From assembly GCA_964362665.1 (NCBI GenBank), contig CAYIFB010000002.1, positions 14,404 to 78,403 on the forward strand: a DNA stretch of 64,000 nt, written 5' to 3'. Shown piece after piece: positions 41,377 through 64,000 of this stretch. Position 1 is the stretch's first letter. Every line of letters begins with the position of its first letter. Source of the stretch: an uncultured Gammaproteobacteria bacterium (GTDB lineage: Bacteria; Patescibacteriota; Microgenomatia; 2-02-FULL-39-11). The notes beneath the pieces are model-generated. The model was not told the DNA's origin and did no database searches. It worked only from the letters and a program-made list of their open reading frames with translations. The translations under genes and the position numbers were made by a program.

Positions 41377-42681
41377 ATGGGTATGTTCAGACGTATCGTT
41401 AATAGCCAGATGACGCGTGGAAGCGTCATTATTTTTATCGGAACAAATATCGGAAATTTTATCAATTTGCTTTTCAATTTTTCGATGGGAAGATTACTCG
41501 GTCCGGTAAAATATGGCGAATTAGGTGCGCTGTTTTCTTCCTCAATTCTCATAGGAGTATTGCTTAGTATTCTCAGTCTTTTTACCGTAAAGGCGGTTTC
41601 TTCGTACTGGGGTAAAAAGGATCTTGGTAAAATACGCGCTTTTCATACGTTTCTGACGCCCAGACTTTTTTTATTGAGTTTTTTAATTTGCATATTATTA
41701 TTGATTATTACTCCCAAGATGAGCGGATTTCTGTATCTAGACAGTTTCACTCCTTTTATTTTAGTAGCGTTATCATTTATTTTAAGCGGACCCGCCACCT
41801 TCAATAAAGGAATACTTCAGGGAGTACTTGCTTTTTCATACGTCACCGTAAACGGAGTAGTTGAGGTAGTGCTGAAACTGATAATATCGGTTATCCTGGT
41901 GATTTTAAATTTTGGATTAATTGCTCCGGTATTAGGAGCGCTGCTTGGAGGGATGGTAGGCTATATATTAACTGTGGTGGAGTTGAAGATCATTTTCAGG
42001 GATGTGGTATATAAAAAAAACAGCCTTGTTTCATGGGATTTGCTGAAATCTTTTTTTCCGGTGACTTTAGCCAGTCTGACTTTGGCGGTATTTTTAAATA
42101 TTGATATTATTTTAGTACGGCATTTTTTTTCGGGAAGTATTGCCGGCGAGTATGTAGCTCTTTCTACAATCAGCAAAATTATTTTTTACGGAATTGGACC
42201 GGTTATTTCAGTGATGTTTCCCCTGATTTCGACTAGGTCAAGCAACGGCCTGCCTTACCTTATTCCGCTTTTAGGTACTTTGGTGATATCGCTCGGGCTT
42301 TCTGCGGTCATTATGTTTATTTTCTTTCTCTTCCCGAAGCTGGTTATCGGCCTTCTTTTTGGCGGTAGTTACCTCAGTATCACTGCGTATTTAGGTCTTT
42401 TTTCCTTTTTTATCACCATCTTCAGTCTTAATTCTATTCTGACTTACTTTCTTTTATCCGTCTCGTATTACCGGCCAATCTACCCGCTTTTTCTCATTTC
42501 CCTGTTGCAAGGGGTTTTTATTTTCATATTTCATGATAATATATGGCAGGTGATTTGGGTAAATATCGCAGTCAGCATTCTCTATTTTATGGTAATTTCT
42601 TTTTTTGTGTTGAAAAAAGAAGGAAGTTTTATTAATAAGTTTATATTTAATAAATTATCCGGTCATATTTATGCAGAATAA
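41377..42681 (+). CDS. Wzx-like polysaccharide flippase (MOP superfamily)
   Basis: 434 aa with ~12 predicted TM helices. The N-terminus resembles PF01943 polysaccharide biosynthesis proteins. Confidence 0.5.
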   Translation: MGMFRRIVNSQMTRGSVIIFIGTNIGNFINLLFNFSMGRLLGPVKYGELGALFSSSILIGVLLSILSLFTVKAVSSYWGKKDLGKIRAFHTFLTPRLFLLSFLICILLLIITPKMSGFLYLDSFTPFILVALSFILSGPATFNKGILQGVLAFSYVTVNGVVEVVLKLIISVILVILNFGLIAPVLGALLGGMVGYILTVVELKIIFRDVVYKKNSLVSWDLLKSFFPVTLASLTLAVFLNIDIILVRHFFSGSIAGEYVALSTISKIIFYGIGPVISVMFPLISTRSSNGLPYLIPLLGTLVISLGLSAVIMFIFFLFPKLVIGLLFGGSYLSITAYLGLFSFFITIFSLNSILTYFLLSVSYYRPIYPLFLISLLQGVFIFIFHDNIWQVIWVNIAVSILYFMVISFFVLKKEGSFINKFIFNKLSGHIYAE

Positions 42682-43453
42682 AACCCCGCCGCATAAACTT
42701 TCGGTCATTATCCCTGCTTATAAACAATCGAAGACCATCGTCAGAGATGTCAGACGGATTGAGAAGATACTTTCTCAAATCCGTTATCCTTATGAAATTA
42801 TTGTCGTAGTTGACGGGTATGGTGACGGTACTTATAGATCAGCTAAACAAATCAAATCTCAAAAAGTTAAAGTGATGGTTTACATGAAAAATCAAGGTAA
42901 AGGCCACGCCGTAAGACTTGGTATGTCGATGGCCACCGGAGATTATATTGCTTTTATTGATGCCGGGATGGAGATAGACCCAAACGGCATTTCCATGCTC
43001 CTCGAGCATATGGAGTGGTATAACGCGGATATTATTGTGGGTTCCAAGAGGCACCCTGCATCTGTAGTAAATTATCCATTGCAGAGGAAAATATTAAGCG
43101 TGGGGTATCAATATATAGTCTGGTTCTTGTTTCATCTGAGCGTTCGTGATACTCAGGCCGGAATAAAAATATTTAAAAGTAAAGTCCTAATTAAAATTCT
43201 GCCAAGACTTTTGGTCAAGCAATATGCGTTTGATCTGGAAATGCTGGCTGTAGCGACAAGATTGGGATTTAAAAGAATATACGAAGCTCCTATAAAATTG
43301 GGCTATAATTTCGGCGATCTGACTCATGCTGCAACCATCAATACCATCCGGCATATCCTGGTGGATACGCTGGCTATTTTTTACCGGACATACATTCTTC
43401 ATTATTATGATAATAAGGGAGGGTGGAGGAAGAGAATCAGTGAAATCCATTAA
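42671..43453 (+). CDS. GT2 glycosyltransferase (Dpm1/ArnC-like)
   Basis: LSVIIPAYKQ...VVDGYGDGT and a DAG/DxD motif. Confidence 0.7.
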   Translation: MQNKTPPHKLSVIIPAYKQSKTIVRDVRRIEKILSQIRYPYEIIVVVDGYGDGTYRSAKQIKSQKVKVMVYMKNQGKGHAVRLGMSMATGDYIAFIDAGMEIDPNGISMLLEHMEWYNADIIVGSKRHPASVVNYPLQRKILSVGYQYIVWFLFHLSVRDTQAGIKIFKSKVLIKILPRLLVKQYAFDLEMLAVATRLGFKRIYEAPIKLGYNFGDLTHAATINTIRHILVDTLAIFYRTYILHYYDNKGGWRKRISEIH

Positions 43454-44375
43454 ATTTTCTATAATTATTCCTTTCAAAAAACCCACTGTCTATCTTTACG
43501 AGTGCCTGACAAAAATAGGAAAACAATCATACCGGAATTTTGAGGTTATTCTTCTGCCGGACAAAAAAGAAAAATTCACTTACTCCAAATCGAGAGTTAT
43601 TCCTACCGGTCAAATCGGTCCTGCAGAAAAAAGAGATATAGGCGCCAAAAAATCAACAGGTGACATTCTGGCTTTTATCGATGATGATGCGTATCCGGAG
43701 AAAGACTGGTTAAAGAATATGGTGAAAAACTTCGCAGTTGCAGAAATAGCAGCAGTTGGTGGTCCAGGAGTTACTCCTGCTGATGTATCGTGGCAGGAAC
43801 AGGCATCGGGCTGGTTTGCGGCTTCTCCCTTTGGCGGGGGATCTTATTCCTATCGATTTTTGCCGGCTGTCAAGCGGTTTATTGACGATTATCCTTCAAT
43901 GAATCTGGCCGTCCGAAAATCTGATTTTTTGAAAGTTGGCGGTTTCGATTCCGGTTATTGGCCTGGAGAGGATACCAAACTTTGTCTGGATTTGACTTAT
44001 AAGTTGGGGAAGAAAATTATCTATGACCCGGACGTATTGGTTTATCATCACCGTCGGGAACTATGGGGTTCACACCTGCGGCAAAACGGAAATTATGGTC
44101 TGCACCGTGGCTATTTTGCTAAAGTATTACCCAAAACTTCCTTCCGACTGGTGTATTTTCTACCCTCATTTCTTGTACTTGGGCTGTTCCTCTTCCCAAA
44201 AGTTGTCGTGCCGGCATATGGTTTACTTTTAGTGATCAATGCATTTTGGATAGCAGCTAAATCCCGGAGTTTATTTCAAGGCTTGATTTCCATGCCGGTC
44301 GTCTTTCTGACGCACTTTTGGTACGGAGTACGATTTATACAGGGGTTTTTATTTACCAGGCGCCTCACTCATTAA
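43440..44375 (+). CDS. GT2 glycosyltransferase (GTG start after AGGGAGG RBS)
   Basis: FSIIIPFKK...FIDDDAYPE (DxD). An RBS at 43422-43430 supports the GTG start at 43440 over the ORF-track ATG at 43326, which overlaps the upstream gene by 128 nt. Confidence 0.6.
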   Translation: MKSIKFSIIIPFKKPTVYLYECLTKIGKQSYRNFEVILLPDKKEKFTYSKSRVIPTGQIGPAEKRDIGAKKSTGDILAFIDDDAYPEKDWLKNMVKNFAVAEIAAVGGPGVTPADVSWQEQASGWFAASPFGGGSYSYRFLPAVKRFIDDYPSMNLAVRKSDFLKVGGFDSGYWPGEDTKLCLDLTYKLGKKIIYDPDVLVYHHRRELWGSHLRQNGNYGLHRGYFAKVLPKTSFRLVYFLPSFLVLGLFLFPKVVVPAYGLLLVINAFWIAAKSRSLFQGLISMPVVFLTHFWYGVRFIQGFLFTRRLTH

Positions 44376-45877
44376 TTATTTTCACTATGCACCGTGAGGT
44401 TATACATGTGATTGCGGACTCTTCTGATTGCTCTCCAGCCATAGGTAAACAAAAATTGCCAGTCGCGCTTGCGGAAATTAAAAAGAAATAGAATTTGCCT
44501 TAAAATAAATTTAGGGTGATAAGCAATGCTGTACATTTTTTTCACCGCTTCATAATAACGATCGTGGGGAATGGGAGTTTTTACGATAATCTTACTCATA
44601 TCGTGGTCGTCATAATTTTTCGTCAGTAATACCTTTTTACTTATACATTCGAGATGATATGGCGTAAAATCAAGCGGGGTACAGAGTGTCACTTGAAGCG
44701 TCCGGGCAAGGCCTTTAAACATCAGTTTCTCCACAAACTTTACCGTTTTATCAAGCATCTCCTGAGTTTCCCAATAATAGCCGACCATGATAGTCAGATG
44801 CGGGTGAAGCCCGTATTTTGTCAGCCAGCGAAGGGTAGGCTCGATATACTGATTTTGGTATCCTTTATTCAGCCTTCTCAATGTTTCATCACTGGCCGAT
44901 TCCAGACCGATGAGGACAAAACGGAAATTGGCTTTGGCCAGAAGTTTTATAGTTTCTTCATCGAGATATTCAAATCTGGTATTAAAACCAAAATAACAAT
45001 TCCTTTTGTGAAGTCCGCGGTCGATAATCCCTTGGGCAAACGCTCTGGCATCCGAGCCCCGGTACCACACTCCCGAATCATCAAAAATTTCCCTGACACC
45101 ATATTTATTGATGAGCATTTCGTATTCATCCAGACTTTTTTTCACGGACATCTTGGAGAATGTAAATTCCGGTCCGTTATACCTGCAAAAGGTACATTTG
45201 CCAAACATGCAGTCCCTGATGACGCTTGTGGCGTAAGTGCCGGGAGTCTGCAAATAATTTCCGTTTTCATAGGCATAATTTTTCCAGCTCACGAGATCCC
45301 TGTCTACCAAGGGCGATTTTTCCAGAGGCTGTACCTGCCGGAAGGCCCCGGTATCCCGTATTTTATTTTTGTTTACCCTGATAGTGAAGCCTTCGATGGT
45401 GCAAGTATTTCTCCAATCAGGATTTTTCTCAATAAAGGGAATAAGGCTGACAAGCGCAAAATCAACGTGGTTGCTTTTTAAAACGACGTCTGTGGCGGAT
45501 TTTTCTAAAGTTTCCTGCGGCCGTTTCATGGAGTGATACCCTGTCATGATAAAAATTGTTTTAGGCAGTTTTTTTCGAAGATCATTTGTCGTTTTCCAGT
45601 AAAATTTCATGACCGGGGTGGTACTTTCAAATACAACAACATCGGGTTGCCACTCCACAAGTTCTTGAAACCATTGCTCTAAACTTTTCAGTTGAGAGTT
45701 CCCGTCATCCCACCTGACATCATGACCCATGTCTCTCAGCCACGTGGCCGCCTGTGCTTCGATAACCGGCAGTAAGTAGGTAGGAGTTTTGAAAAACTGC
45801 ACGTTGCGGTTCTGGGACACCATGGCTTTTTGTCCCCGTTTATTGATGATTGGAGGATAAGAAATGGCTATTTTCAT
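44372..45877 (-). CDS. B12-binding-domain radical-SAM-like protein (non-canonical Cx4Cx2C)
   Basis: N-terminal Rossmann-like B12-binding region. The RDCMFGKCTFC cluster sits in the position of the rSAM motif. Confidence 0.45.
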   Translation of the reverse strand: MKIAISYPPIINKRGQKAMVSQNRNVQFFKTPTYLLPVIEAQAATWLRDMGHDVRWDDGNSQLKSLEQWFQELVEWQPDVVVFESTTPVMKFYWKTTNDLRKKLPKTIFIMTGYHSMKRPQETLEKSATDVVLKSNHVDFALVSLIPFIEKNPDWRNTCTIEGFTIRVNKNKIRDTGAFRQVQPLEKSPLVDRDLVSWKNYAYENGNYLQTPGTYATSVIRDCMFGKCTFCRYNGPEFTFSKMSVKKSLDEYEMLINKYGVREIFDDSGVWYRGSDARAFAQGIIDRGLHKRNCYFGFNTRFEYLDEETIKLLAKANFRFVLIGLESASDETLRRLNKGYQNQYIEPTLRWLTKYGLHPHLTIMVGYYWETQEMLDKTVKFVEKLMFKGLARTLQVTLCTPLDFTPYHLECISKKVLLTKNYDDHDMSKIIVKTPIPHDRYYEAVKKMYSIAYHPKFILRQILFLFNFRKRDWQFLFTYGWRAIRRVRNHMYNLTVHSENN

Positions 45878-46021
45878 AAAATAATTGCTAATGATTTGCT
45901 CGCATATAAATTTTTCAGACTCTGCAACTCGTGCTCGGTAAACCCCTTATCTTCTGTCCATTTACATTGGTATTCTCGCACTCAAATGCAGAGATCTTCA
46001 AAATTTATATTACTGCGCAAG

Positions 46022-46672
46022 TTAGAAAAATACTTCAGTAAAGATATTGTTTCCGTTAATTCCTTTTACGCTTAATATATCATAGACGTCGTTAATCATT
46101 GCCCGATTACCACATAAATAGTAAAGAGTATCAAGAGGTAGAGGTATTTTTTTTAGATAGTCGGTTACTCTTCCTGCAAAATCGCCGCCTTTTCCTTTAG
46201 AAACACAAGCTACATACTTTCCTTTACCATAATCCTTGCGGTCATATTGTTCAGATGTCAAGCGAATTCCGTGAAGAATTTGAAAGTCGATTTTGGGATA
46301 GGATTTCACGAAGGAATGAAAAGGAGCGATTCCGGTTCCCGATCCGATAAACATATATTTTTGTTTTGCGTTTGGGTTAATAAGTGTAAATTTACCGTAC
46401 GCTCCGTCAAGCGTAACAAATTCATCAGGTTTTAACTTACTAAGTCCTTCGGATACTGCGCCGCCTTTTACTTTTCTTATCAGAAACTCAAGATAGTTAT
46501 CATAAGCGCCGGAATAGGTGGAATATTCCCGGTTTACCGCACTGCCAACAAGTCCGATGTTAACACACTGGCCGGGTATGAATTTGAAGTTGTTGCGTGC
46601 GATTCGGAGAATAAAAGTTGATTTACTGAGGTGGCGGATTTCCAGCACAAGAGCCCGCTGCATTGTATTCAT
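46022..46672 (-). CDS. ferredoxin-NADP-reductase-like FAD/NAD(P)-binding oxidoreductase
   Basis: R-E-Y-S FAD motif. GSGTGIAPF matches the NAD(P)-binding GxGxGxxP. Confidence 0.6.
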   Translation of the reverse strand: MNTMQRALVLEIRHLSKSTFILRIARNNFKFIPGQCVNIGLVGSAVNREYSTYSGAYDNYLEFLIRKVKGGAVSEGLSKLKPDEFVTLDGAYGKFTLINPNAKQKYMFIGSGTGIAPFHSFVKSYPKIDFQILHGIRLTSEQYDRKDYGKGKYVACVSKGKGGDFAGRVTDYLKKIPLPLDTLYYLCGNRAMINDVYDILSVKGINGNNIFTEVFF

Positions 46673-46807
46673 ATCTTATTTTACAAAACTTTTCTCATTT
46701 TTAAAATGGGAACGATACTTTATCTCCGATTATAAATTAGTTACAATAGATCTTACCTGCTTCAGTTTATATCATTTCATTACTCAAGGAAGAGATTTTT
46801 TATTTCT

Positions 46808-47911
46808 ATGAAAAAAATTTTAATCATTGAAACATCTCTTTTCCGCGGGGGAGGTAGAGGAGGATCCTTTCAACAAGCCAAATACTACCTGGATTTATTA
46901 AGCCAGCATGGTTATAACGCTGAGCTTTTTATAGGGGAAGCAAGGATGAACCAATATCTTCGAAGACTTAAACTAATTCGAAAGATCCGTACATCAGACT
47001 TTATTATCGGTTTCGGTACTCCTCTTCTTTGCAGTTATCTGCAGTGGTTAAGTTTTTTTCTTGGTAAAAAAGGGATTTTTTGCATAGACACTTACATTTC
47101 TTCACGTGACATCATCAAAGATCACCTCAAAAGGAATATATTTCCGGCAAAAATAATTTTTTATACGATCTTTTCTTCCTTATTGAACAAAATATTTATG
47201 TTTTTTTTGCCTCCAAAACTTAATTTAGTCACACTTTCTTCCTGCCATTATATTTTCGATAAACTGAAGTATACAAGATTAGGATGTGACGGAGACAGAT
47301 TTTTATATCCTAAAATAACATATAAAAAAAGAATAGGAGTACTAAATAAACATAAGACTGTTTTATTTTATGGAACTTTGTATCGGGGTCGGGGAGTGAT
47401 AGATTTGATTCAAGCATGCAGGATTCTTTGGAAAGAAAGCTACGACTTTAAACTAATTATACTCGGATGGCCTATAGACCCCTTTACAAAAAAGCAAATA
47501 GCGGGCGATATCATGGATATCGATAAGAGGAAAATAGTAGTAAAAGGTTATGTTACCAATATCGGGGAATATTTAAAAGAAGCAAGCGCTGTGGTTCTGC
47601 CCTTCCGCTATCCCTGTTCATTTCAGACCCCGTATACTTTACTTGAACCCATGGGTTTGGGAGTACCGGTGATTACGACTGATGTCGGGTCTCACTGCGA
47701 GTGGATTAAAGACAGGGACACGGGACTGATTTGCCAGAAGGAAAACCCCGGGGATTTAGCAGAGAAGATAGAGACTGTATTTAAGGATAAAAAACTTGTT
47801 GAGAGAATTACTACCGGAGCATATAGATTACTCAAAAAGAGATATCAAAAGAAAGATTTGCTTTTAGAAACTCTTAAAAAGTATGAAAGACAAATACTGG
47901 GCAAAAAATAA
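46808..47911 (+). CDS. GT4 glycosyltransferase
   Basis: C-terminal E-x7-E region (LEPMGLGVPVITTDVGSHCE). Confidence 0.55.
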   Translation: MKKILIIETSLFRGGGRGGSFQQAKYYLDLLSQHGYNAELFIGEARMNQYLRRLKLIRKIRTSDFIIGFGTPLLCSYLQWLSFFLGKKGIFCIDTYISSRDIIKDHLKRNIFPAKIIFYTIFSSLLNKIFMFFLPPKLNLVTLSSCHYIFDKLKYTRLGCDGDRFLYPKITYKKRIGVLNKHKTVLFYGTLYRGRGVIDLIQACRILWKESYDFKLIILGWPIDPFTKKQIAGDIMDIDKRKIVVKGYVTNIGEYLKEASAVVLPFRYPCSFQTPYTLLEPMGLGVPVITTDVGSHCEWIKDRDTGLICQKENPGDLAEKIETVFKDKKLVERITTGAYRLLKKRYQKKDLLLETLKKYERQILGKK

Positions 47912-48623
47912 GTATAGTACAGTTGATCCGCTGGACTACGAAACGGCGCGTTTCCGTACGCACGCCGGAAAACTGATAGATGAAACAGAAAAAAGAGCGG
48001 TATTAGATTTACTACTGAATTCGGGGGTAGATTATAAGAAAGAACCGAAGATACTGGATGTGGCAACTGGTCCCGGAAGGCTTGCGTTTTATCTAAAGGA
48101 TAATTTACAAGAGGCTAAAATAACAGGTGTCGATATTAACGAAAATATGTTGAGAAGGGCCCGGGAGGTTGCTAGAGGAAAAAAATTAAATATAAATTTT
48201 ATCAAGGGAGATATTTATCATCTTCCATTTCAAGAAAAACAATTTGATGCAGTGACGGGATTGAGATTTTCCATGCACTTGCCGGATATTGATAGTCTTA
48301 TCAGGGAATTAGCTAGAGTACTCAAAAAAGACGGTATTTTAATCTTTGACATCTTCAATCTGGATAGTATATTAAAGTTGAGGTCTTCCGGTAAAAATCA
48401 CAGCCGTCAATTTTCAGGATGGTACAACATCTCTGATCTGATTGACATCTCATTTCAAAACGGACTGGAGTTTGTCCAAAAAAAAGGATTATTTCTGTGT
48501 GGCGAAACTAGTCTTCGAAAATTTCCGGAAAATCTGTTATTTATGCTTTCCGCGTTTGTCAGGCCGCCCTTATTTTTGCAGAATTTTTCCACTAAAATAG
48601 TCCTATGTTTCAGAAAAATATGA
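47883..48623 (+). CDS. class I SAM-dependent methyltransferase
   Basis: ILDVATGPGRLAFYL is motif I. Confidence 0.65.
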   Translation: MKDKYWAKNKYSTVDPLDYETARFRTHAGKLIDETEKRAVLDLLLNSGVDYKKEPKILDVATGPGRLAFYLKDNLQEAKITGVDINENMLRRAREVARGKKLNINFIKGDIYHLPFQEKQFDAVTGLRFSMHLPDIDSLIRELARVLKKDGILIFDIFNLDSILKLRSSGKNHSRQFSGWYNISDLIDISFQNGLEFVQKKGLFLCGETSLRKFPENLLFMLSAFVRPPLFLQNFSTKIVLCFRKI

Positions 48624-49735
48624 ATATACTTGTTACAGGAGGCGCAGGCTTTATTGGCAGTTTTCTGGTGGACAGATTACTCAGAGAAGGACATAACGTC
48701 AGAATTATTGATAACCTTGAATCCCAAGTTCATCAAGGAAAAAAACCTAAATATCTCAATAAGGATGCGGAATTTATCAGGGCCGATATTTGTGATGAAG
48801 ACGCTTTGGATAAAGCCTTGAAATCAATTGATATAGTATTTCATGAAGCGGCGATGGTAGGGGTGGGACAGAGCATGTATGAAGTGATTAAATACACAAG
48901 GGTAAATGAGTTGGGAACGGCCACGCTTCTTGATCTTATCGTCAATAAACATAGGGATCATATTAAAAAAATGATAGTTGCCGCCTCCATGAGTGAATAC
49001 GGGGAAGGACTTTATAGTTGTAAAAAATGCGGTTTAGTGAAACCTGAATTACGGGAAGAAAATGATTTAGAAAATAAGCGATGGGAATCCGGATGTCCAA
49101 ATTGCCATAATTCATTATTACCAATACCTACAGATGAGACTACTCAATTAAATTGCCATTCAGTATATGCCATCAATAAAAGAACACAGGAGGATATGTC
49201 TTTAACTGTTGGTAAAGCATTTAAAATTCCCACAGTTGCCCTTCGGTATTTCAATGTTTATGGTCCCAGACAAAGTCTTTCAAATCCATATACTGGGGTA
49301 GCTGCAATATTTATTGGCCGTATAAAAGCGGGTAAACCCCCGGTAATATTTGAAGACGGGCTTCAAAGCCGCGATTTTGTATCAGTACATGATATTGTTG
49401 TAGCAAATATTGCCGTAATGAAAAAGAGTAGTGCTGATTATCAGATTTTTAACGTAGGATCAGGAAATAAAATTACCATACTGGATTTAGCAAAATTACT
49501 GATAAAAATATTTGGCAGTAACCTGCAAGCTGAGATTACAAATCAATTCAGAACAGGAGATATCCGCCACTGTTTTGCAGATATAACTAAAATAAAAAAA
49601 ACTCTTGGTTGGAAACCGGAAATAAGATTTGATGAAGGGATAAAGGAACTGATTGAATGGAGCTATGAAGAAAATTCAAAAGATATGTTTAATCAGGCAG
49701 AAAAGATCTTGAGGGATAAGGGGGTTATCAGATGA
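48605..49735 (+). CDS. NAD-dependent NDP-sugar epimerase/dehydratase with zinc-ribbon insertion
   Basis: VTGGAGFIGS, the YxxxK motif (YAINK), and a ~35-aa insert with CKKCG...CPNCH between the Ser and Tyr motifs. Confidence 0.7.
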   Translation: MFQKNMNILVTGGAGFIGSFLVDRLLREGHNVRIIDNLESQVHQGKKPKYLNKDAEFIRADICDEDALDKALKSIDIVFHEAAMVGVGQSMYEVIKYTRVNELGTATLLDLIVNKHRDHIKKMIVAASMSEYGEGLYSCKKCGLVKPELREENDLENKRWESGCPNCHNSLLPIPTDETTQLNCHSVYAINKRTQEDMSLTVGKAFKIPTVALRYFNVYGPRQSLSNPYTGVAAIFIGRIKAGKPPVIFEDGLQSRDFVSVHDIVVANIAVMKKSSADYQIFNVGSGNKITILDLAKLLIKIFGSNLQAEITNQFRTGDIRHCFADITKIKKTLGWKPEIRFDEGIKELIEWSYEENSKDMFNQAEKILRDKGVIR

Positions 49736-50601: not shown

Positions 50602-50604
50602 CCC

Positions 50605-53125: not shown

Positions 53126-53132
53126 CTCACTT

Positions 53133-55805: not shown

Positions 55806-55836
55806 AAGAATACAATCTGTTGGGATAAGCGATAAT

Positions 55837-56877
55837 ATGAGACATAGCGATAAATTTATTACGAGAATAGAAGAAATGTTTCATTATTTATCCCTAGGAA
55901 AAAAAGAAGTTCAACCCTCGAAATTCTGGATTAAGCTAAATAAGCTCCATATGAAAGAATTGTCCCGTGATGGATTTGACAATATTAAACAGACAGTCGT
56001 ACGGAAATATTTCGCCAATACCCCGCTCTTTTTTATGAATAAACAAGTCCTTTTTTTAGTTCTGAATTTAAATCCTTTGTCGACGATGAAGAATCTTATC
56101 AGAAGTTTTATCATTCACAAACATTCTTTTTTTAGCCGCCTAGATTCTGCAAGTTATAATTTTCTCACGCTTATGATTTGGGATTATGTGAAATTACATG
56201 ATAAAGATAAACTACTTCAGTTGTTGGAAGAACCGTTGATTGGTAATCCTCCCAGGATTTACGATCATAAAAAACTGGTTTCCCAGGATCTGGCTAATTC
56301 TGTGATGGAATATAAATCTATGATCGAGGGAATAAAAAATAGAAAGGCATTAAAGACAATTTGTGAATTAGGGGCAGGATCCGGCAGGAATGCCTTTGTT
56401 TTTCTGTCGCTGATGCCGGGAATCAAATATATTATCATAGATATTCCTCCGGCTCTGGCTATATCAGAACGGTATTTAAGCCAGGTTTTTCCCGGGAAAA
56501 AAATATTCCGTTTCCGCTCTTTTAAAACTTTTAGTGAAATAAAAGACGAATTTAGAGAAGCTGATATCCTGTTTTTTCTCTCAAGCCAGATTGAAAAGCT
56601 TCCGAAAGGGAGTGCTGATCTTTTTATAAATATTTCCTCATTGCATGAAATGCGCATGGATCAGGTAAAATATTATTTAAAACAGATTGAAAGATTGACC
56701 AGAAAAGGAGGATATTTTTATTTTAAGCAGTGGAAAATCGCCTATGTTCCATATGAGGATATCTATATTAATCAGGTGGATTATAAGCTGAAACTTCAGT
56801 GGAAAAAAATTTTTGTGAGAGAAGCCAAGATACAGACCAAGTTTTTTGAGGCGCTCTACCGGCTTGAAAAGTATTAA
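55837..56877 (+). CDS. putative SAM-dependent (sugar O-)methyltransferase
   Basis: ICELGAGSGRNAFVF is a glycine-rich motif I. An acidic residue follows the beta2 position. Confidence 0.45.
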   Translation: MRHSDKFITRIEEMFHYLSLGKKEVQPSKFWIKLNKLHMKELSRDGFDNIKQTVVRKYFANTPLFFMNKQVLFLVLNLNPLSTMKNLIRSFIIHKHSFFSRLDSASYNFLTLMIWDYVKLHDKDKLLQLLEEPLIGNPPRIYDHKKLVSQDLANSVMEYKSMIEGIKNRKALKTICELGAGSGRNAFVFLSLMPGIKYIIIDIPPALAISERYLSQVFPGKKIFRFRSFKTFSEIKDEFREADILFFLSSQIEKLPKGSADLFINISSLHEMRMDQVKYYLKQIERLTRKGGYFYFKQWKIAYVPYEDIYINQVDYKLKLQWKKIFVREAKIQTKFFEALYRLEKY

Positions 56878-56890
56878 ATTAACCCCAATC

Positions 56891-57811
56891 TTATGTGGTA
56901 CGTTTGTAGAATAGGGAAATAAGAACCCTTTCAATATCCTTATTGATTAATTTCAATAAAAAAAGCCTTATAGCCCTGCTGGTTTTTTTCAGGAAGATTA
57001 ATATTTTAAATTTTGAGGAAATATTTTTAGCATTTTTTCTACAAATATTGTCATAATGCATATTTAAGATCCGGTACATATAGACTAAAAATTGCTTTTT
57101 GTCATTGGGGCCGAAGGACTGATTATCCGACCGGAATTTAATTACAGATTCGGACAAAAGGTATATTTTGTAATCATCAGGAAAATAATAAAAGAGTGAA
57201 GAGTGGGGAAAAGGATTAGGCTGTCCGTCAAATTGCTTCAACTTAGCTGCATGGCGATTGACGATACTTCTTTTGATAATCGTATTGGAATAAACACCAA
57301 TATACCAGTCAAACGGCAGGAAAAACTTTTTTTCAAGATATGAAAATAAATCTTTTTTCCGGGTAATGAATTTGTCATGTGATAATCTTAACAAGTTCTT
57401 GTCGATTACATGCTGTAGATCTTTAGAATAGAGATCCAAATTACATAATATAACATCAGGGTCGTATTTTTGTATTACTTGAAATACACTTTTGAGAGAG
57501 CCGTTTTTATGGATATCATCATCAGACAAAAACCAAATGTAATTTCCTGCCGCAAAACCTGCAACTTTAAGCTGATTTTTGGCAAATCCGATATTGCGGG
57601 TATTCTCAAAATACCTGATATTTTTATATTTCCGCAGATATGTCTTTACAATTTCTTTGGTGTCGTCGATGCTGTCATCATTACAAATTACTATTTCGAC
57701 CTTTTTATAAATATTTTTATCACCGAATTGATTTACAATACTGTTCAGGCCTTCAGTCAAATACTTTATCCGGTTATATGTCGGAATACAGATGGAGATG
57801 AGGGGTTTCAT
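56891..57811 (-). CDS. GT2 glycosyltransferase
   Basis: ISICIPTYNRIKYL...CNDDSIDDT. Confidence 0.65.
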   Translation of the reverse strand: MKPLISICIPTYNRIKYLTEGLNSIVNQFGDKNIYKKVEIVICNDDSIDDTKEIVKTYLRKYKNIRYFENTRNIGFAKNQLKVAGFAAGNYIWFLSDDDIHKNGSLKSVFQVIQKYDPDVILCNLDLYSKDLQHVIDKNLLRLSHDKFITRKKDLFSYLEKKFFLPFDWYIGVYSNTIIKRSIVNRHAAKLKQFDGQPNPFPHSSLFYYFPDDYKIYLLSESVIKFRSDNQSFGPNDKKQFLVYMYRILNMHYDNICRKNAKNISSKFKILIFLKKTSRAIRLFLLKLINKDIERVLISLFYKRTT

Positions 57812-57868
57812 ATAATGGTATATTATAATATAAACCTATTATAAAGGCTCAATTCACTCAAATAAATT

Positions 57869-58876: not shown

Positions 58877-58882
58877 GAACTT

Positions 58883-59503
58883 ATGTCTAAATATCTTGTC
58901 AACACTGCACAATATGGAACCCATAGATTAATTGCTTCCGAAATAGGAAAAGGTTATCTGGTTTTAGACTTGGGATGTAATAAAGGATATCTTAAGCAGT
59001 TTGCTCCAGGAAATTTTTTTTTCGGGATTGACTATAACAAAAAAGATCTACAAGAAGCCAAAAAAAACGGTTATCAGAAAGTCTACCAATTAGACCTGAA
59101 TGACTATAAAGCTTTTAAAGTCAAAGAAAAATTTGACGTTTTAATATTTGCAGATATTTTGGAACACTTATTATTTCCTGATAAAGTTTTAAGATTTTTT
59201 GTTGACCATTATTTACAAAAGGGCGGAAAAATAATTATTTCTTTGCCTAATGTAGCCCATATTACGGTAAGATCTAGACTTTTGAGGGGGAGTTTCGTTT
59301 ACAGCGAGAGTGGTATATTAGACCGTACTCATCTGCATTTATATACTTTACAAACAGCCGGAGAATTAATTACTTTATCAGGGTTAAATATTATTCAAAG
59401 AAAGTTCAGTTCCAATCGTTTAGGCCGATTAATTCAACATTTCCCGTTTCTAGGGACTTTACTGGGGTTTAACTTAATTTTCATATGCCGAAAAAAATCC
59501 TGA
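58883..59503 (+). CDS. class I SAM-dependent methyltransferase
   Basis: VLDLGCNKGYL is motif I. Confidence 0.55.
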   Translation: MSKYLVNTAQYGTHRLIASEIGKGYLVLDLGCNKGYLKQFAPGNFFFGIDYNKKDLQEAKKNGYQKVYQLDLNDYKAFKVKEKFDVLIFADILEHLLFPDKVLRFFVDHYLQKGGKIIISLPNVAHITVRSRLLRGSFVYSESGILDRTHLHLYTLQTAGELITLSGLNIIQRKFSSNRLGRLIQHFPFLGTLLGFNLIFICRKKS

Positions 59504-61776
59504 TTAATGGTATTACTTTGGAGAGCGCGAATATTGTCCCTCTGCTTCTAAAGGTAAAATACTGGCAGAAGGAAAATGTCGAGGTAACCTTTTTTGGCAA
59601 TTGCATACTCAAGAGTCAGATAGATGCACTGCAGATAATCAAAAAATATAATTTCATCGAATTGAAAAACACCGGGAGAATAAACGGCAGAATTCAATTG
59701 ATTATTGAAGGCGTTAGAAGAAATTTTTTAGCTTTATCCTACATCAAAAGATTTAAAGATAATTTTGATGTTGTCTATTCCATATCCTCGGTTTTGGACC
59801 TGATGATTTTCCCTTATATTCTCAAAAAATTTGATAAAAATTTATTACGGGTTGCCGTTTTTGATAATATCGTACCCATTACAGATCCGGGAAATAAATT
59901 TATCCGATTTCTTGCCTGGATATTTTTCCAAATAAGTTTAGTCCTTTTGAAAGACGCGGATTTTATTTTCGCCGGTTCAAATGATTTGGAAAATTTTCTG
60001 ATAAGAAAAGGAATAGATAAAGATAAAATTATAGAAAGAGGACAGGCTGTGAGGAATGACATGATAAGAAACGCCAGGGTCAACCCCAAATACCACATTG
60101 ATGCGCTATTTATCGGCAGGATCAACGAAACAAAAGGTATTTATGATATGTTGGAAGTTTTAAATATCGTCAGAATGAAATACCCCGATTTTCAATTGGC
60201 TCTTATAGGTCAAGGTGATGAGGTTACTATGGAGCAATATAAAACGAAAATAAAAAATATGGGACTTGTGAAAAATATAAAATTTTTAGGAAACGTATCG
60301 GAAAAAGATAAATTTGAAATTATTAAAAGCAGTAAAGTATTCTGGTTTTTGTCGGTCAGCGAATCAGAAAGCTGGGGGGTGGCTCTGCTTGAGGCAGTTT
60401 GCTGCGGTAAGCCTGCTTTTGTTTATAATCTGCCGGCATACAAATATTATAAAAATAACGAAGTTTTCGTTTTTAAGCTTCATGACTATCATGCTGTTGC
60501 CGATAAGGTGGTTGAGGTATTTGGCAGAAAAGAATTCAATAATGAAATTGGAAGATTGCTGATAGGTAAATACAGCTGGGAGAAAATCGCAAGTATTGAG
60601 TTTGAAAATATTTTCCCTGCTTTACTCAGTTTGCCGGCGCAAAAAAATATACTCATTAATGGTATTACACTTGAAGGCGCTAATATTATTCCTTTGCTCT
60701 CGAAGGTAAAATACTGGCAGGGAAAAGGAGTTAATATCGCTTTTTTGGGGAATAGTACCCTGAAAAAACAGATTGACTCTCTGCAGATTATAAAAAAATA
60801 TGATTTTTTTACCCTGCGAAATACCAGAAAGATAGAAGGAAAAATACAACTAATTTTTGAGGGCTTGAGAAGAAACGTTCAGGCTTTATCATTTACCCGA
60901 CGATTTAAAAATAAATTTGACGGCGTTTATTCCATCTCCACAGTTTTGGATTTACTGCTTTTTCCTTATTTTCTGAAAAAGATTGATAAACGGCTAAAGT
61001 GGACGGCGGTCTTTGATAATACCGTGCCGTTTATATATATGGGGAATATTCTTATCAGGTTTTTGGCCTGGTTTTTTTACCGGTTTAGCCTTTTGCTTCT
61101 TAAAGACGCCGATTATCTTTTTGCTGTCAGACCGGAATTGAAAGAATATCTGTTGGGAAAAGGATTTAAACACGATCGTTTGGTCGTGACCGGAAACGCA
61201 ATCGAAATCGGGTTTATAAAAAGCGCCCAAAAAGAAGACAGATATAATATTGACGCTCTATATATAGGAAGGATTAATGAGTTGAAAGGCATTTATGATA
61301 TGCTGAAAGTTTTAGAAATAGTAAAAGTTATATATCCTGATTTTCAGTTAGCCCTCATGGGAACAGGAGACAGGCAAACCATGATTAAATATAAAAAGAA
61401 AATAGAAGAGATGGGGCTTACTGCAAACATCCAGTTTTTGGGGTATAAGACGGGACTTACTAAATTTAGTATCATTAAAAGCAGTAAATGTTTTTGGTTT
61501 TTAAGCCATACGGAGAGTTTTCCGGTAGCGCCTCTTGAGGCAGTTTGCTGCGGATTGCCGGCAATCGTTTATGATCTGGAAGCATATAAAATGTACACAA
61601 ACAAAGAAATGATGATTTTAAAAAGGAAAGATTATGTTGCGGCAGCCAAAAAAGTACTGGAAATTTTTAAAGAAGGGAATTTCGACAATAGCGCCGGTAA
61701 GAAATTATTTCAGAAGATTTCCTGGAGTTGGGATAAAATAGCAGCGATAGAATATAATACGTTGTATCAAAATTAG
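59485..61776 (+). CDS. tandem-duplicated GT4-like glycosyltransferase (two ~380-aa repeats fused)
   Basis: Residues 1-380 and 381-763 align end to end: KKILINGITLESANIVPLLLKVKYWQ vs KNILINGITLEGANIIPLLSKVKYWQ, and LEAVCCGKPA vs LEAVCCGLPA. Confidence 0.6.
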   Translation: MPKKILINGITLESANIVPLLLKVKYWQKENVEVTFFGNCILKSQIDALQIIKKYNFIELKNTGRINGRIQLIIEGVRRNFLALSYIKRFKDNFDVVYSISSVLDLMIFPYILKKFDKNLLRVAVFDNIVPITDPGNKFIRFLAWIFFQISLVLLKDADFIFAGSNDLENFLIRKGIDKDKIIERGQAVRNDMIRNARVNPKYHIDALFIGRINETKGIYDMLEVLNIVRMKYPDFQLALIGQGDEVTMEQYKTKIKNMGLVKNIKFLGNVSEKDKFEIIKSSKVFWFLSVSESESWGVALLEAVCCGKPAFVYNLPAYKYYKNNEVFVFKLHDYHAVADKVVEVFGRKEFNNEIGRLLIGKYSWEKIASIEFENIFPALLSLPAQKNILINGITLEGANIIPLLSKVKYWQGKGVNIAFLGNSTLKKQIDSLQIIKKYDFFTLRNTRKIEGKIQLIFEGLRRNVQALSFTRRFKNKFDGVYSISTVLDLLLFPYFLKKIDKRLKWTAVFDNTVPFIYMGNILIRFLAWFFYRFSLLLLKDADYLFAVRPELKEYLLGKGFKHDRLVVTGNAIEIGFIKSAQKEDRYNIDALYIGRINELKGIYDMLKVLEIVKVIYPDFQLALMGTGDRQTMIKYKKKIEEMGLTANIQFLGYKTGLTKFSIIKSSKCFWFLSHTESFPVAPLEAVCCGLPAIVYDLEAYKMYTNKEMMILKRKDYVAAAKKVLEIFKEGNFDNSAGKKLFQKISWSWDKIAAIEYNTLYQN

Positions 61777-61782
61777 ACGCTT

Positions 61783-62466
61783 ATGAAAAATATATACAAG
61801 GACATGTATGAAACCAGGCAAAAACTGGACTTGATAGAGAACTGCCGGGTGAAGATTATGCTTGAGATGATCAACGAACTTCATTTGACCGGAAAAAATA
61901 TTTTGGATATAGGTTGTTTCGACGGTACCTTATTATCTCTGGTAACCAATAGAAATAATAAATTTTACGGGATTGATGCCAATGACTTTGCCGTAAGGCA
62001 GGCCCGTAAGAAAGGCATTAAGGTTAAGCAGTTTTTCTTTGACGATGTCACTAAAATACCGTTTGCGGATAAGTTTTTTCATTTAATAGCCGCAGGAGAA
62101 ATAATTGAGCATATCTATGATACTGATTTTTTCCTGCGTGAGCTGAAAAGGATTCTCAAGCCCGGCGGATATCTGCTTATTTCCACACCCAACATTGCAT
62201 CACTAGGCCGTAGGTTGCTGCTTCTAACCGGCATCAGTCCGATCATTGAAATTTCACCCAATGAAATAGACAGCCCGGGACATATCCGCTATTTTACCTT
62301 TAAGACGCTGGCGGGATTGCTCGCGAAGCATGGACTGAAAGTATTGCAGACAAGGTCTGATGTGCTCAATCTCTCCAACGACGGAAGGATAAGATCAATA
62401 CAGATCCCGAAAATTTTTCCCTCAATAGGCCAAAGTATAATTTGCCTCTGTCAAAAAAAATCATAA
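61783..62466 (+). CDS. class I SAM-dependent methyltransferase
   Basis: ILDIGCFDGTL is motif I. IAAGEIIEHI is a post-II motif. Confidence 0.6.
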   Translation: MKNIYKDMYETRQKLDLIENCRVKIMLEMINELHLTGKNILDIGCFDGTLLSLVTNRNNKFYGIDANDFAVRQARKKGIKVKQFFFDDVTKIPFADKFFHLIAAGEIIEHIYDTDFFLRELKRILKPGGYLLISTPNIASLGRRLLLLTGISPIIEISPNEIDSPGHIRYFTFKTLAGLLAKHGLKVLQTRSDVLNLSNDGRIRSIQIPKIFPSIGQSIICLCQKKS

Positions 62467-62517
62467 ATAGTAAAATAAATTAACCGAACGAAGTTAGTCC
62501 AAAAATCTCCCAACTTA

Positions 62518-64000
62518 TGAGGAAAATATTTAACCGCTATTTTATTCTGAATATTTTTTGGATTATCATTCTTTCTCTAATTCCTGTTTATTATACTTGG
62601 GGAAGGTTGGCTGTGGGAGGAGATGTGCTTATATTTTTCAGCAGCAAGGGGTTGTCTAAATATCTCTACCAATGGATTCCATACCATAACGGCCTGCCAT
62701 ACCCAATCAACTATTATCCGCTGTATTTCTTGTATAAAATTGCCGAAAATTTTCACTGGGATCCCTACCAGGTATCTGTCATAGTCCTATTTGTTTTGAG
62801 CGTTCTGGCCGGTTTGGGAATTTATAAACTGTCCAAATTAATCTGCGGGAAAGACGGTCTGTTCATGCTGGTGCCTATCACCTTTTACATACTTTCCCCC
62901 GCGCTTCTGAACGGCTGGCATTATATGTATATCTATTCTACCGCACCCTGGTTTATCTATTATGTTTTTAAAACCATAAAGTCCAAAGATATTAACTTAG
63001 GGAATATTATCTGGCTTAATGTGATTGTCTTTTTCTCCTCCATGGATTTACCCAACCCCAAGTATCTATTCCACATGTTTCTTATTATGTTTACCGCAAT
63101 AATTTGCAGTTTAATATTTCGCCTTATAAGCCTGCAGCTGATAATAAAAAGCTGGTGGAAGATTATCATACTTTTTCTGTTGTCAATTTATATCTACCTT
63201 CCGTTTGGTTATTTTTTTACTCAGTTGACCTCAGTCATACCCGTAAGAAGCGGATATAAAGATGTCGGTAGAATGCCGGATTACGGTTACGCTACGATTG
63301 ACAGAATGGTTATGTTGCACCATAAAGGAGTTAACATAAATACACCGGAAGGAGCCGCTTATTCTGCTAATCCCATTGTTACTTTTTTAAGCTATTCTTT
63401 CATTTTTATAATTCTTTTAAATCTGATTTTTAGAAAAGGCGATGATGAAACATATAAGTATGAATTGATCTTTTTTATCCTGATACTGATTTTTTTGTTT
63501 TTTGCGGCCGGCCCAAATCCGCCGTTTGGCTTTATTTATGAATTTGCTGTCACACATTATCAAGTATTTGCATTTCTTCGCACTACCGCCGGGGCAGTAT
63601 TTTTTTCTTCCATCTTTTATGCGGTTTTGATAGCGTCGTTTATCCGGAAAATAAACAAGCACCAATCTTTTTTTATTTTTTTATCGATATTAATTATCGG
63701 CATTGTTAATTATCCCTATGTGCACGGTGAATATTTCAAAAACTTCAATAATGTAAATCAGTATACGGACAGACAGGAATACGGGTTTAAAATTCCGCAA
63801 ATATACTTTGACATGGTGAGCGTCATAGAGGGTCAGAAGCTGGATGCCAAGTATCTGCATACCAGAAGCAATGTAGGTTATCTTGGGACGAGGTGGGGTT
63901 ATTTCGGCCCAAGTATTTATTTGTTTCTCTATGATAACCATAATGTAGGTTACAGTGAAATATATTCCAATCTCGCTAATCATAATATAGGATATGTTTT
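62518..64000 (+). CDS. polytopic integral membrane protein, 3' end beyond window (possible GT-C-type glycosyltransferase)
   Basis: Uninterrupted reading frame from the ATG at 62518 to the window end. More than 10 hydrophobic helices. Sits at the end of the glycan cluster. Confidence 0.4.

Follow-up and report, generated by a model that had tools for sequence, protein, structure and literature searches.

What does a long run of glycosyltransferase (GT), methyltransferase and membrane-protein genes build in a bacterium of the candidate phyla radiation (CPR), and where is its product installed? We asked this of the glycan locus that begins at position 41377 of a 64,000-nucleotide stretch of contig CAYIFB010000002.1 (the whole stretch is termed the window) and continues past its end. 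The answer that we favour, at a rough probability of 0.55, is that a lipid-linked, decorated oligosaccharide is flipped by a Wzx-like flippase and installed outside the membrane, on an envelope acceptor, by a pair of GT-C enzymes of the AftD/MmpA type. It draws on the predicted GT-C fold of the large terminal membrane protein, on a second, MmpA-like GT-C encoded downstream, and on three modules (a 5' block, a 3' core and the GT-C pair) that are conserved across CPR.

Gene content and extent of the locus

The open reading frame (ORF) listing placed 21 intact genes between 41377 and the window end, mostly co-oriented and many overlapping by 4–29 nt. For sequence beyond the window end we used a Hainich groundwater contig (ENA ERZ1292641, locus L001), which matches the window over 14,516 bp with a single mismatch (same strain) and encodes the 763-aa double GT4. 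The genes, in order, were as follows, with profile matches and E values in brackets.

41377..42681, plus strand: Wzx-like flippase of the MOP family, about 11–12 transmembrane (TM) helices (PF01943, 1.5e-10; PF13440; 11 TM segments)
42671..43453, plus strand: GT2a, soluble GT2 (PF00535, 1.5e-25)
43407..44375 (ORF opens 43326), plus strand: GT2b, membrane-integrated GT2 with C-terminal TM helices (PF00535, PF13632)
44372..45877, minus strand: B12-binding radical S-adenosylmethionine (SAM) enzyme, BchE/HpnJ-like (PF04055, 6.4e-16; PF02310)
46022..46672, minus strand: FAD/NAD(P) ferredoxin-reductase-like flavoprotein, BenC-like (PF00970, PF00175)
46808..47911, plus strand: GT4a glycosyltransferase (PF00534, 4.6e-25)
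47883..48623, plus strand: MT1, class I SAM methyltransferase (PF13649, 2.8e-24; PF08241, 3.4e-24)
48605..49735, plus strand: short-chain dehydrogenase/reductase (SDR), a nucleoside diphosphate (NDP)-sugar epimerase/dehydratase (PF01370, 4.5e-50; PF16363, 2.2e-49)
49732..50601, plus strand: GT2c glycosyltransferase (PF00535, 1.7e-27)
50605..51609, plus strand: GT2d glycosyltransferase (PF00535, 6e-27)
51606..52349, plus strand: MT2, class I SAM methyltransferase (PF08241, 1.8e-14)
52361..53125 (public gene call starts 52373), plus strand: MT3, class I SAM methyltransferase (PF13847, 1.5e-15)
53133..54803 (ORF opens 53073), plus strand: O-carbamoyltransferase of the TobZ/NodU/CmcH family (PF16861, 6.1e-67; PF02543, 1.5e-51)
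54909..55805, plus strand: N-terminally anchored Pro/Thr-rich protein (from the translation; no Pfam match)
55837..56877, plus strand: NanM-type sugar O-methyltransferase (TIGR04371, 5.1e-39; PF00891)
56891..57811, minus strand: GT2e glycosyltransferase (PF00535, 2.7e-30), its inverted orientation kept in locus L002
57869..58876, plus strand: GT2f, soluble GT2, first gene of the conserved 3' core (PF00535, 1.9e-25)
58883..59503, plus strand: MT5, class I SAM methyltransferase of the 3' core (PF13847, 2.4e-12)
59485..61776, plus strand: double GT4, 763 aa (two PF00534 stretches)
61783..62466, plus strand: MT6, class I SAM methyltransferase (PF13489, 1.3e-19)
62517..64000 (window end), plus strand: N-terminal 494 of the 809 aa of a GT-C glycosyltransferase (predicted fold)
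Beyond the window, L001: 414-aa protein, N-terminally anchored, C-terminus concanavalin-like (lectin-like)
Beyond the window, L001: 401-aa polytopic protein, LytR_C domain as sole Pfam match
Beyond the window, L001 17912–19636, about 3.4–5.1 kb past the window end: 574-aa polytopic protein, MmpA-like GT-C

The 414-, 401- and 574-aa proteins follow the 809-aa gene in that order, and the next gene after them, on the other strand, encodes a 2-oxoacid dehydrogenase E1. The nearest named relatives of several proteins belong to Candidatus Gottesmanbacteria (74% for the 809-aa protein, 89% for GT2b), so that the attribution to a reduced-genome CPR organism is reasonable, and the host is a Gottesmanbacteria-like groundwater bacterium (Microgenomates, CPR).

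Together with Pfam and NCBIfam profile scans, this inventory matched the gene list of a preliminary description of the window almost gene for gene. Eight GT2/GT4 genes, holding nine GT-A/GT-B domains, passed the profile searches (GT2 ORFs at 42671, 43326, 49732, 50605, 56891(-) and 57869; GT4 at 46808 and 59485, the latter with two GT4 domains), and profiles likewise matched the B12-radical SAM enzyme, the epimerase/dehydratase, the flippase, the NodU/CmcH-type carbamoyltransferase and all six SAM methyltransferases that had been proposed. The ferredoxin-reductase-like gene at 46022–46672(-) was absent from that list. The extent given there, 41377–64000, was right in that the genes lie at or near their reported positions and too short at the far end, as the locus runs on for about 5.1 kb to a window-equivalent position of ~69120; the Thr/Pro-rich protein at 40578 that had been counted as embedded lies outside the 41377 start. 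The whole locus is ~27.7 kb long with roughly 25 genes, and the window holds its larger part.

An AftD-like GT-C protein and its MmpA-like partner

The terminal ORF from 62517 encodes 809 aa in full when read on L001, and its window part stops at residue 494. The protein gave no Pfam or NCBIfam match even at E<=10, and the profile of its family had no sequence match to any solved structure. An AlphaFold2 model from a 60-sequence alignment had a predicted local distance difference test score (pLDDT) of 88.7 and a predicted template modelling score (pTM) of 0.89, and the nine Foldseek PDB matches at E<=1e-3, plus ArnT at 0.045, were all GT-C proteins. AftD led (6.5e-8), followed by DPY19, STT3, AftA and ArnT, and the AftD match reached 563 residues, into the soluble domain. 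The predicted layout is ~10–11 TM helices at the N-terminus, then one mixed soluble domain and one helix at the C-terminus. From this modelled fold we assign the protein, with high confidence, as a GT-C-fold glycosyltransferase that is closest to mycobacterial AftD. The preliminary description had suspected a GT-C transferase at this position, and the structural matches bear this out. The protein carries no WWDYG-type motif, and WW occurs in it only as WWK213 and WWI742.

G35-D36, at least 90% conserved in 60 family members, lies directly after helix 7–26 (TM1), and the position of this pair matches AftD's essential K39/D41, a correspondence of place in the first extracytoplasmic loop after TM1 and not of residue-level superposition. 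D41 is reported as essential in AftD (bioRxiv 10.1101/2019.12.22.885152). Other conserved stretches are LPNPKY (178–183) and FLRTTAG (353–359), where K182 and R355 are candidate phosphate ligands, and a polyprenyl-phosphate-linked sugar is the putative donor.

The family is large, as an exhaustive HMMER search recovered 6388 cluster representatives at E<=1e-3, of which 1028 reach E<=1e-30; the tiny family of 66 proteins given by a word-indexed search was thereby exposed as a sensitivity artefact. Some ~900-aa relatives at E ~1e-117 pass PF11847 (GT-C_AftD; P0349, 40.8 bits against a cut-off of 26), and others carry CBM_4_9, a carbohydrate-binding module (CBM). The 809-aa protein has no direct PF11847 match, and its link to that family goes through these relatives and through profile alignment with the MmpA-like family. 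It represents a branch, so far unannotated and found only in CPR/Patescibacteria-type genomes, within the superfamily of AftD-like GT-Cs, and it is not AftD itself, having half the length and lacking the acyl carrier protein (ACP)-binding bundle. The C-terminal soluble domain with its TM helix (residues ~500–809) was also found alone or in other architectures, in many database proteins of 346–1400 aa, one of which joins this module to CBM_4_9.

The 574-aa protein matched the NCBIfam MmpA model NF053599 over residues 15–464 (E 2.5e-46, 158.4 bits) and, by sequence, is placed as an MmpA homolog but not an equivalog, its score lying under the cut-off of 210. Its family is widespread in CPR, with individual members that reach PF11847 or DUF6541 and one annotated 'YfhO family'; the protein had no sequence-level match to any solved structure. 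BLASTP between the 809-aa and 574-aa proteins was not significant, while hhalign of the two families gave 98.6% probability (E 8.9e-16, 512 columns) and aligned D36 of the 809-aa family with the invariant D34 of the MmpA-like family, along with a conserved Arg. By this comparison the two GT-Cs are paralogs, visible as such only from profile to profile. MmpA is known as a Corynebacterineae membrane protein that is needed for trehalose-mycolate export and resembles the N-terminal half of AftD, and its defining paper found no homologs outside Corynebacterineae (PMC8698533); a 2026 preprint suggests that MmpA may be a glycosyltransferase.

Conservation of the locus across CPR genomes

Window proteins were mapped onto the ORFs of 16 related loci, and counts for the 3' core are given over 15 loci. 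The three modules recur in Microgenomates, Parcubacteria and Saccharimonadales. The 3' core has the order GT2f-MT5-GT4-GT-C in most loci, that is, a GT2f-like gene, an MT5-like gene and a single GT4 directly upstream of the gene of the 809-aa family: in 13 of 15 loci the GT-C gene has a GT4 next to it, in 10 of 15 GT2f orthologs lie upstream of it, and MT5 orthologs of at least 195 bits were found in L002, L004, L006, L010 and L017. Each half of the double GT4 of the window is 40–49% identical to single GT4s of other CPR loci (26–34% for the two GT4s of L003), and by sequence it is best described as a tandem fusion of the single GT4 that elsewhere precedes the GT-C gene. In L006 (7432–11103) one 1223-aa ORF carries a GT4 (residues ~10–383) fused to the N-terminus of an 809-family GT-C, a single instance that could be an assembly artefact.

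The 5' block has the order Wzx-GT2a-GT2b-small ferredoxin-B12-radical SAM in L018 and L019, on CPR contigs of 0.68–0.95 Mb. The window departs from this order, since its radical SAM gene is inverted and paired with a flavoprotein resembling ferredoxin-NADP reductase instead of a ferredoxin. Radical SAM orthologs lie within 10 kb of an 809-family gene in L006, L008, L009, L010 and L013. In L020 (Saccharimonadales) and L021 (Parcubacteria) a Wzx, GT2 and GT4 cluster ends with the GT-C pair, a distant 809-type protein (E 6.7e-12 and 1.4e-25 against the 809 profile, respectively) followed by an MmpA-like GT-C. These two clusters have a CsaB-like pyruvyl transferase (PS_pyruv_trans; L020 5195–6304, L021 6556–7596) in place of methyltransferases and adjoin cell-wall genes of the division and cell wall (dcw) type, mraZ-rsmH-PBP-mur.

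The middle of the locus varies. The 70%-identity relative L002 has MT2-MT3-carbamoyltransferase-NanM-GT2e but not 54909, whereas in the 74% relative L004 SDR genes and unknowns replace that segment and a 54909 homolog lies elsewhere near the cluster. With a GC content of 0.372 in the locus against 0.416 in window positions 1–33000, conserved assembly and export machinery combined with variable decoration genes is the look of surface-antigen loci. The preliminary description had considered such a system unusual for a reduced-genome organism; gene-order comparison instead found the architecture recurrent and conserved in CPR genomes. Arrays of three to five consecutive polytopic proteins of 450–590 aa also flank conserved glycan blocks in other CPR genomes (L018 1–5427, L019 1–4289, L005/L017 12.4–20.6 kb), some of them PMT_2-type GT-Cs and many without a Pfam match.

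Decoration enzymes

The six class I SAM methyltransferases (47883, 51606, 52361, 55837, 58883, 61783) matched Methyltransf_11/23/25/31 or TIGR04371, and all six carry an acidic, Gly-rich variant of motif I. Five score above curated Pfam cut-offs and 55837 passes too (PF00891, 24.9 against 22.3 bits); it also matched the NCBIfam 'putative sugar O-methyltransferase' model TIGR04371 at 134.5 bits against a cut-off of 44. It is the only one of the six with a sugar-specific family assignment, and the other five are presumed to act on sugars. Their pairwise identity is 22–30%, and they are therefore not recent duplicates. Six methyltransferases among 21 genes would have P ~3e-6 at an assumed background of 2% and 1e-4 at an assumed 4%, but the enrichment is more convincingly seen in recurrence: in 11 of 15 independent loci, the 10 kb upstream of the homologous GT-C gene contain methyltransferases.

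The carbamoyltransferase has both Carbam_trans domains (PF02543, 176 bits; PF16861, 225 bits), an ASKHA/Kae1-like N-terminal and a YrdC-like C-terminal one, and resembles solved TobZ (3vex, E 2.6e-90) and NodU (3.4e-45).

The radical SAM enzyme matched PF04055 at 59.4 bits and PF02310 at 28.4 bits, slightly under the latter's cut-off of 32.1. It also matched TIGR02026 (5e-29) and the HpnJ model TIGR03471 (6e-25), both far under cut-off (TIGR03471, 88 against 578 bits), and it aligns full-length to HpnJ (residues 53–462 with 46–443 of 472); there was no sequence-level match to any solved structure. Its Cys triad, at residue 223, is spaced CX4CX2C (CMFGKCTFC in the window) instead of the canonical CX3CX2C, and this spacing is kept as CWWG[KR]C[TA]FC in six of the orthologs (L006, L009, L010, L013, L018, L019), which were found in seven other loci. 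The flavoprotein at 46022–46672 probably feeds electrons to it, and in L018 and L019 a small ferredoxin (Fer4) gene precedes the radical SAM gene in the flavoprotein's place. The preliminary description foresaw a heavily O- and C-methylated product; the locus is indeed rich in methyltransferases, but C-methylation is not supported, as only the HpnJ/BchE-like radical SAM enzyme points to it. The window encodes a second B12-binding radical SAM protein of 467 aa (30128–31531); the two were considered as paralogs and rejected, as their sequences are not similar.

Flippase and cytoplasmic glycosyltransferases

The flippase matched PF01943 at 41.5 bits against a cut-off of 28.2, and Wzx homologs occupy the same position in L018–L021. 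GT2a, which stands beside Wzx in L018 and L019 as well (244–257 bits), has as its nearest PDB sequence matches Pyrococcus DPMS (5mlz, 3.7e-14), ArnC and GtrB, and gave weak NCBIfam matches to ArnC, PpgS and AglJ. It is a candidate polyprenyl-phosphate glycosyltransferase, either primer or donor synthase: because its best solved relatives are DPMS, ArnC and GtrB, priming or donor synthesis on polyprenyl monophosphate may be proposed, and such a monophosphate donor would suit the GT-C enzymes as well.

GT2b has more than 5600 homologs, many 55–60% identical, and is very highly conserved in CPR, which suggests a core step at the membrane face. We had taken its two C-terminal TM helices as a sign of a GtrB/DPMS-type polyprenyl-phosphate sugar synthase; this was rejected, as its AlphaFold2 model (pLDDT 93.7) best matched Chlorella-virus hyaluronan synthase, PcManGT and BcsA, and no ArnC or GtrB sequence match was found. 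GT2f weakly resembles rhamnosyl- and galactofuranosyl-transferases (TIGR01556, 65 bits), AglJ, AglG and Agl16 were among the weak NCBIfam matches of locus proteins, and the SDR enzyme at 48605 is GalE/RmlB/LegB-like with scores under NCBIfam equivalog cut-offs.

Proposed pathway and its alternatives

Beyond the gene content, the family and fold assignments and the three-module conservation described above, we infer the carrier, the order of steps, the sugars on which five of the methyltransferases act, the radical SAM reaction and the acceptor. Cytoplasmic GT2 and GT4 enzymes would build the oligosaccharide on a polyprenyl-phosphate carrier from NDP-sugars reshaped by the SDR enzyme. Priming would probably fall to the DPMS/ArnC/GtrB-like GT2a on a lipid monophosphate, because no phosphoglycosyltransferase is present, with the synthase-like GT2b acting next at the membrane face. 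Decoration by the six methyltransferases, the TobZ-type O-carbamoyltransferase and the B12-radical SAM enzyme, reduced via the adjacent flavoprotein, is placed in the cytoplasm because SAM and carbamoyl phosphate are available there. The Wzx-like flippase would then move the lipid-linked glycan outward, where the 809-aa and 574-aa GT-Cs may transfer it to, or extend, an envelope acceptor, perhaps helped by the lectin-like anchored 414-aa protein and the 401-aa LytR_C membrane protein. The order GT2f-MT5-GT4-GT-C, the L006 fusion, the pairing of the GT-Cs and the order of the 5' block, taken as functional linkage, argue for this scheme, and assembly on a lipid carrier with transfer outside the cell, as the preliminary description had it, is the most economical reading. 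The acceptor is more likely to be a glycan, in the cell wall or anchored in the membrane, than a protein, given the AftD/MmpA kinship, relatives that carry CBMs, the LytR_C protein nearby and the position beside dcw genes in other lineages.

Several parts expected of such a pathway were sought among the locus genes, 28 other window ORFs (461–41297) and four downstream genes. These ORFs encode no initiating phosphoglycosyltransferase (Bac_transf, Glycos_transf_4; WbaP/WecA-type), which could be encoded elsewhere in the genome, no Wzy, Wzz, WaaL/Wzy_C or PglL-type O-oligosaccharyltransferase recognisable by Pfam, and no LCP catalytic domain, ATP-binding cassette (ABC) exporter or GtrA-like small flippase. 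Profile searches often fail to detect Wzy proteins. The locus matched no characterised cluster for O-antigen or teichoic acid, and literature searches returned nothing relevant on CPR GT-C enzymes or glycan loci, nor on this product, in keeping with the preliminary description.

These findings and some others weigh against the proposed pathway. Since no gene was recognised as an initiating enzyme, a Wzy, a regulator of chain length or an LCP ligase, both carrier and end-point are guesses. GT2a has no TM helices and its matches to lipid-phosphate GT2s are weak (34–56 bits), and GT2b, expected to be of the GtrB type, has the predicted fold of a minimal cellulose/hyaluronan-synthase GT2. For five of the six methyltransferases the assignment stays at the generic class I level, with all scores under NCBIfam equivalog cut-offs, and all sequences compared come from metagenome assemblies. 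AftD-type GT-Cs, finally, normally add single sugars from polyprenyl-P-monosaccharides and not whole oligosaccharides, as described for AftD- and YfhO-type enzymes (PMC8035078; bioRxiv 10.1101/2019.12.22.885152).

The enzymes could instead serve protein glycosylation, the alternative named in the preliminary description, in which the 809-aa GT-C would transfer the oligosaccharide en bloc, or sugar by sugar in a PMT-like manner, to Ser, Thr or Asn of surface proteins, with the Thr/Pro-rich anchored proteins, pilins or an S-layer protein as candidate acceptors. This idea is still live because PMT and STT3 are strong structural matches of the GT-C; the locus and its flank encode three anchored Ser/Thr/Pro-rich proteins, the L004 cluster has its 54909 homolog nearby, and the gene set is like that of archaeal Agl N-glycosylation, with which the AglJ, AglG and Agl16 matches would fit. 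We nevertheless hold it to be unlikely. The protein 54909, put forward as an acceptor together with 40578 in the preliminary description, is missing from its syntenic site in L002 and displaced in L004, and neither P/T-rich protein belongs to the conserved modules, which speaks against that proposal. The GT-C lacks the WWDYG-type motif, PglL/Wzy_C-type enzymes were not found, and the closest match in extent and through the chain of sequence relatives is to AftD and MmpA, which are glycan-directed; relatives also carry carbohydrate-binding modules.

Alternatively, the locus may be a composite. The block Wzx-GT2a-GT2b-radical SAM would be a housekeeping CPR unit for a conserved lipid-linked sugar or glycolipid, the strain-variable GT, methyltransferase and carbamoyltransferase set would make a Wzx-dependent surface polysaccharide whose polymerase is unrecognised or elsewhere, and the GT-Cs would add only single side-branch sugars from polyprenyl-P-monosaccharides, as in GtrABC, ArnC/ArnT and CsbB/YfhO. 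The conservation of GT2b, far above that of typical glycan-specific GTs, would be explained in this way, as would the swapping of middle genes between close relatives, the resemblance of GT2a to DPMS, ArnC and GtrB, the single-sugar activity of known AftD- and YfhO-type enzymes (cited above), and the presence of the 5' block in L018 and L019, where the GT-Cs are of other types (PMT_2 arrays) and no 809-family gene lies within 10 kb. We find the composite doubtful all the same, since the modules are contiguous in the window, mostly co-oriented and overlapping by 4–29 nt, since L006, L008, L009, L010 and L013 have radical SAM and GT2b genes no more than 10 kb from their 809-family gene, and since neither a GtrA-type small flippase nor a Wzy was found; the GT4-GT-C fusion of L006 also argues for coupling of a cytoplasmic step with the GT-C.

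If the product were instead a glycolipid, secreted or kept in the membrane, or a glycosylated small molecule, for instance a Nod-factor-like methylated and carbamoylated oligosaccharide lipid, this would account for NodU/TobZ-type carbamoyltransferases, NanM-family sugar O-methyltransferases and B12-radical SAM enzymes, which are typical of natural-product pathways, and for the full-length alignment to HpnJ, an enzyme acting on a lipid-linked sugar. Such a product is very improbable given the lack of polyketide, non-ribosomal peptide synthetase (NRPS), aminocyclitol and acyltransferase genes, the presence of a Wzx-like flippase, and the two GT-Cs with large extracytoplasmic domains, the LytR_C protein and the dcw neighbourhood in other CPR, which point to the envelope.

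The oligosaccharide pathway proposed above can be extended, tentatively, to a conserved and undescribed envelope-glycopolymer pathway across CPR/Patescibacteria. In this extension the Wzx-GT2-GT2-ferredoxin/flavoprotein-B12-radical SAM block would make an unusual lipid-linked sugar primer, lineage-specific decoration would follow (poly-O-methylation and carbamoylation here, pyruvylation elsewhere), and the AftD/MmpA GT-Cs would assemble or attach the polymer outside the membrane. If so, the surface of these episymbionts would be determined mainly by this glycan, and CPR would hold an ancient relative of the AftD/MmpA machinery of mycobacteria, whose pair of GT-Cs has until now been considered a Mycobacteriales hallmark.

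Comparison with known systems

All enzymes of the locus come from known superfamilies, and the scheme of assembly on a lipid, flipping and GT-C transfer is likewise known. The 809-aa GT-C shares with mycobacterial AftD (PF11847, PDB 6w98) an Asp at the position of the essential D41, and the mmpA-mtrP-tmaT locus of Mycobacteriales likewise unites AftD-type and MmpA-type membrane proteins, a SAM methyltransferase and a predicted GT. AftD, however, has ~1400 aa, 16 TM helices, three CBMs and a five-helix ACP-binding bundle, in comparison to ~800 aa and a single C-terminal TM helix here; unlike in mycobacterial arabinan assembly, no decaprenyl-phosphoarabinose pathway genes were seen, and the CPR host is without mycolic acids.

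With Wzx/Wzy loci for O-antigen or capsule the locus has in common a MOP flippase, many GT2 and GT4 enzymes, an NDP-sugar SDR, lower GC and a content that varies among relatives, but it lacks a WbaP/WecA-type initiator and recognisable Wzy, Wzz or WaaL and has GT-Cs at its end. The multi-component systems GtrA/B/C, ArnC/ArnT and CsbB/GtcA/YfhO (PMC8035078) also combine a DPMS/ArnC/GtrB-like GT2 with GT-Cs acting outside the membrane; here there is no GtrA/GtcA-type flippase, GT2a has no C-terminal TM hairpin, and seven further GTs and eight modifying enzymes go far beyond the needs of single-sugar decoration.

In the Agl pathway of Haloferax volcanii a GT2 primes the lipid monophosphate without a phosphoglycosyltransferase, and further GT2s, a SAM methyltransferase, the Wzx-like candidate AglR and external GT-C steps follow. 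The present locus resembles it in its presumed GT2 priming, further GT2s, methyltransferase, Wzx-like flippase and GT-C, and in the weak AglJ, AglG and Agl16 matches, but its GT-C is AftD-like and not STT3/AglB-like, its host is bacterial and a protein acceptor is not indicated. Sugar O-methylation and O-carbamoylation alongside GTs are shared with NodS/NodU of Nod factor synthesis, mycobacterial polymethylated polysaccharides, glycopeptidolipids and TobZ; Nod-type pathways differ in having a NodC-type chitin oligosaccharide synthase, NodA/NodB and an acyltransferase, all absent here, and in gene order and organism. A membrane GT2 beside a B12-radical SAM enzyme recalls the HpnI/HpnJ modification of hopanoid side chains, but the radical SAM score is 88 against a cut-off of 578 bits, GT2b has no HpnI match and no hopanoid genes are present.

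To judge from the searchable literature, four things are new: the CPR-wide architecture, the B12-radical SAM/ferredoxin block, the pairing of an unannotated AftD-like branch of GT-Cs with an MmpA homolog outside Mycobacteriales, and, in this lineage, an exceptional number of methyltransferases together with a carbamoyltransferase. Since CPR cells are ultra-small and for the most part live attached to a host, the chemistry of their surface is expected to control how they attach, which hosts they use and how phages or immune systems recognise them. CPR glycosylation, however, has been described as unexplored (PMC11623550). The locus offers a concrete parts list for a CPR surface glycan that is conserved across phyla, with a GT-C subfamily missed entirely by current Pfam and NCBIfam annotation, and MmpA and AftD homologs in so distant a lineage bear on the evolution of extracytoplasmic glycan assembly in monoderm bacteria. 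Saccharimonadales encode both an MmpA-like GT-C and a distant relative of the 809 type, and as this order has members that are in culture and genetically tractable (PMC11623550), the hypothesis should be testable there.

Genomic surroundings

To the left of the locus lie two further features.

39477..39548, minus strand: tRNA-Trp(CCA) (Rfam, 62.9 bits; ARAGORN), at the left edge of the region with a serine recombinase on its other side
40578..41297, plus strand: flanking gene for a secreted or anchored protein with a Thr/Pro/Gln-rich tail (from the translation; one N-terminal TM segment; no Pfam match)

A large serine recombinase gene (37722–39503) overlaps the 3' end of the tRNA-Trp gene. The two were considered as a sign of a mobile glycan island, a reading that found no support: no repeat of this tRNA turned up in the window, and the recombinase sits across the tRNA from the glycan genes. 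Left of the recombinase are a 279-aa protein without family, a Dcm cytosine methylase (35449–36555) and a Vsr endonuclease (35045–35452), and further left a LexA-like repressor (34417–35019) and DUF2130. GC is raised across this stretch (window 33323–39548; 0.43 overall, 0.45–0.46 at 36–40 kb), which may be an integrated element or a restriction-modification island.

Elsewhere in the window, a nusG/rplK/rplA...rplJ/rplL cluster (1738–10498) with an L10 leader (2817–2926) is split by ~4 kb of non-ribosomal genes (2987–7041), among them genes for a 551-aa Ldh_1_N-like protein and a HAD hydrolase. A homolog of 23S rRNA intervening-sequence proteins is encoded at 13505–14233 and a secreted Peptidase_M64/Golvesin_C protein at 19794–21518. 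In the related loci, the L002 flank (16843–22466) carries branched-chain amino-acid biosynthesis genes (ilvD, AHAS, KARI, LeuA-like) and the L001 flank (20011–22292) a fused 2-oxoacid dehydrogenase E1, both of them unusual metabolic content for CPR genomes.

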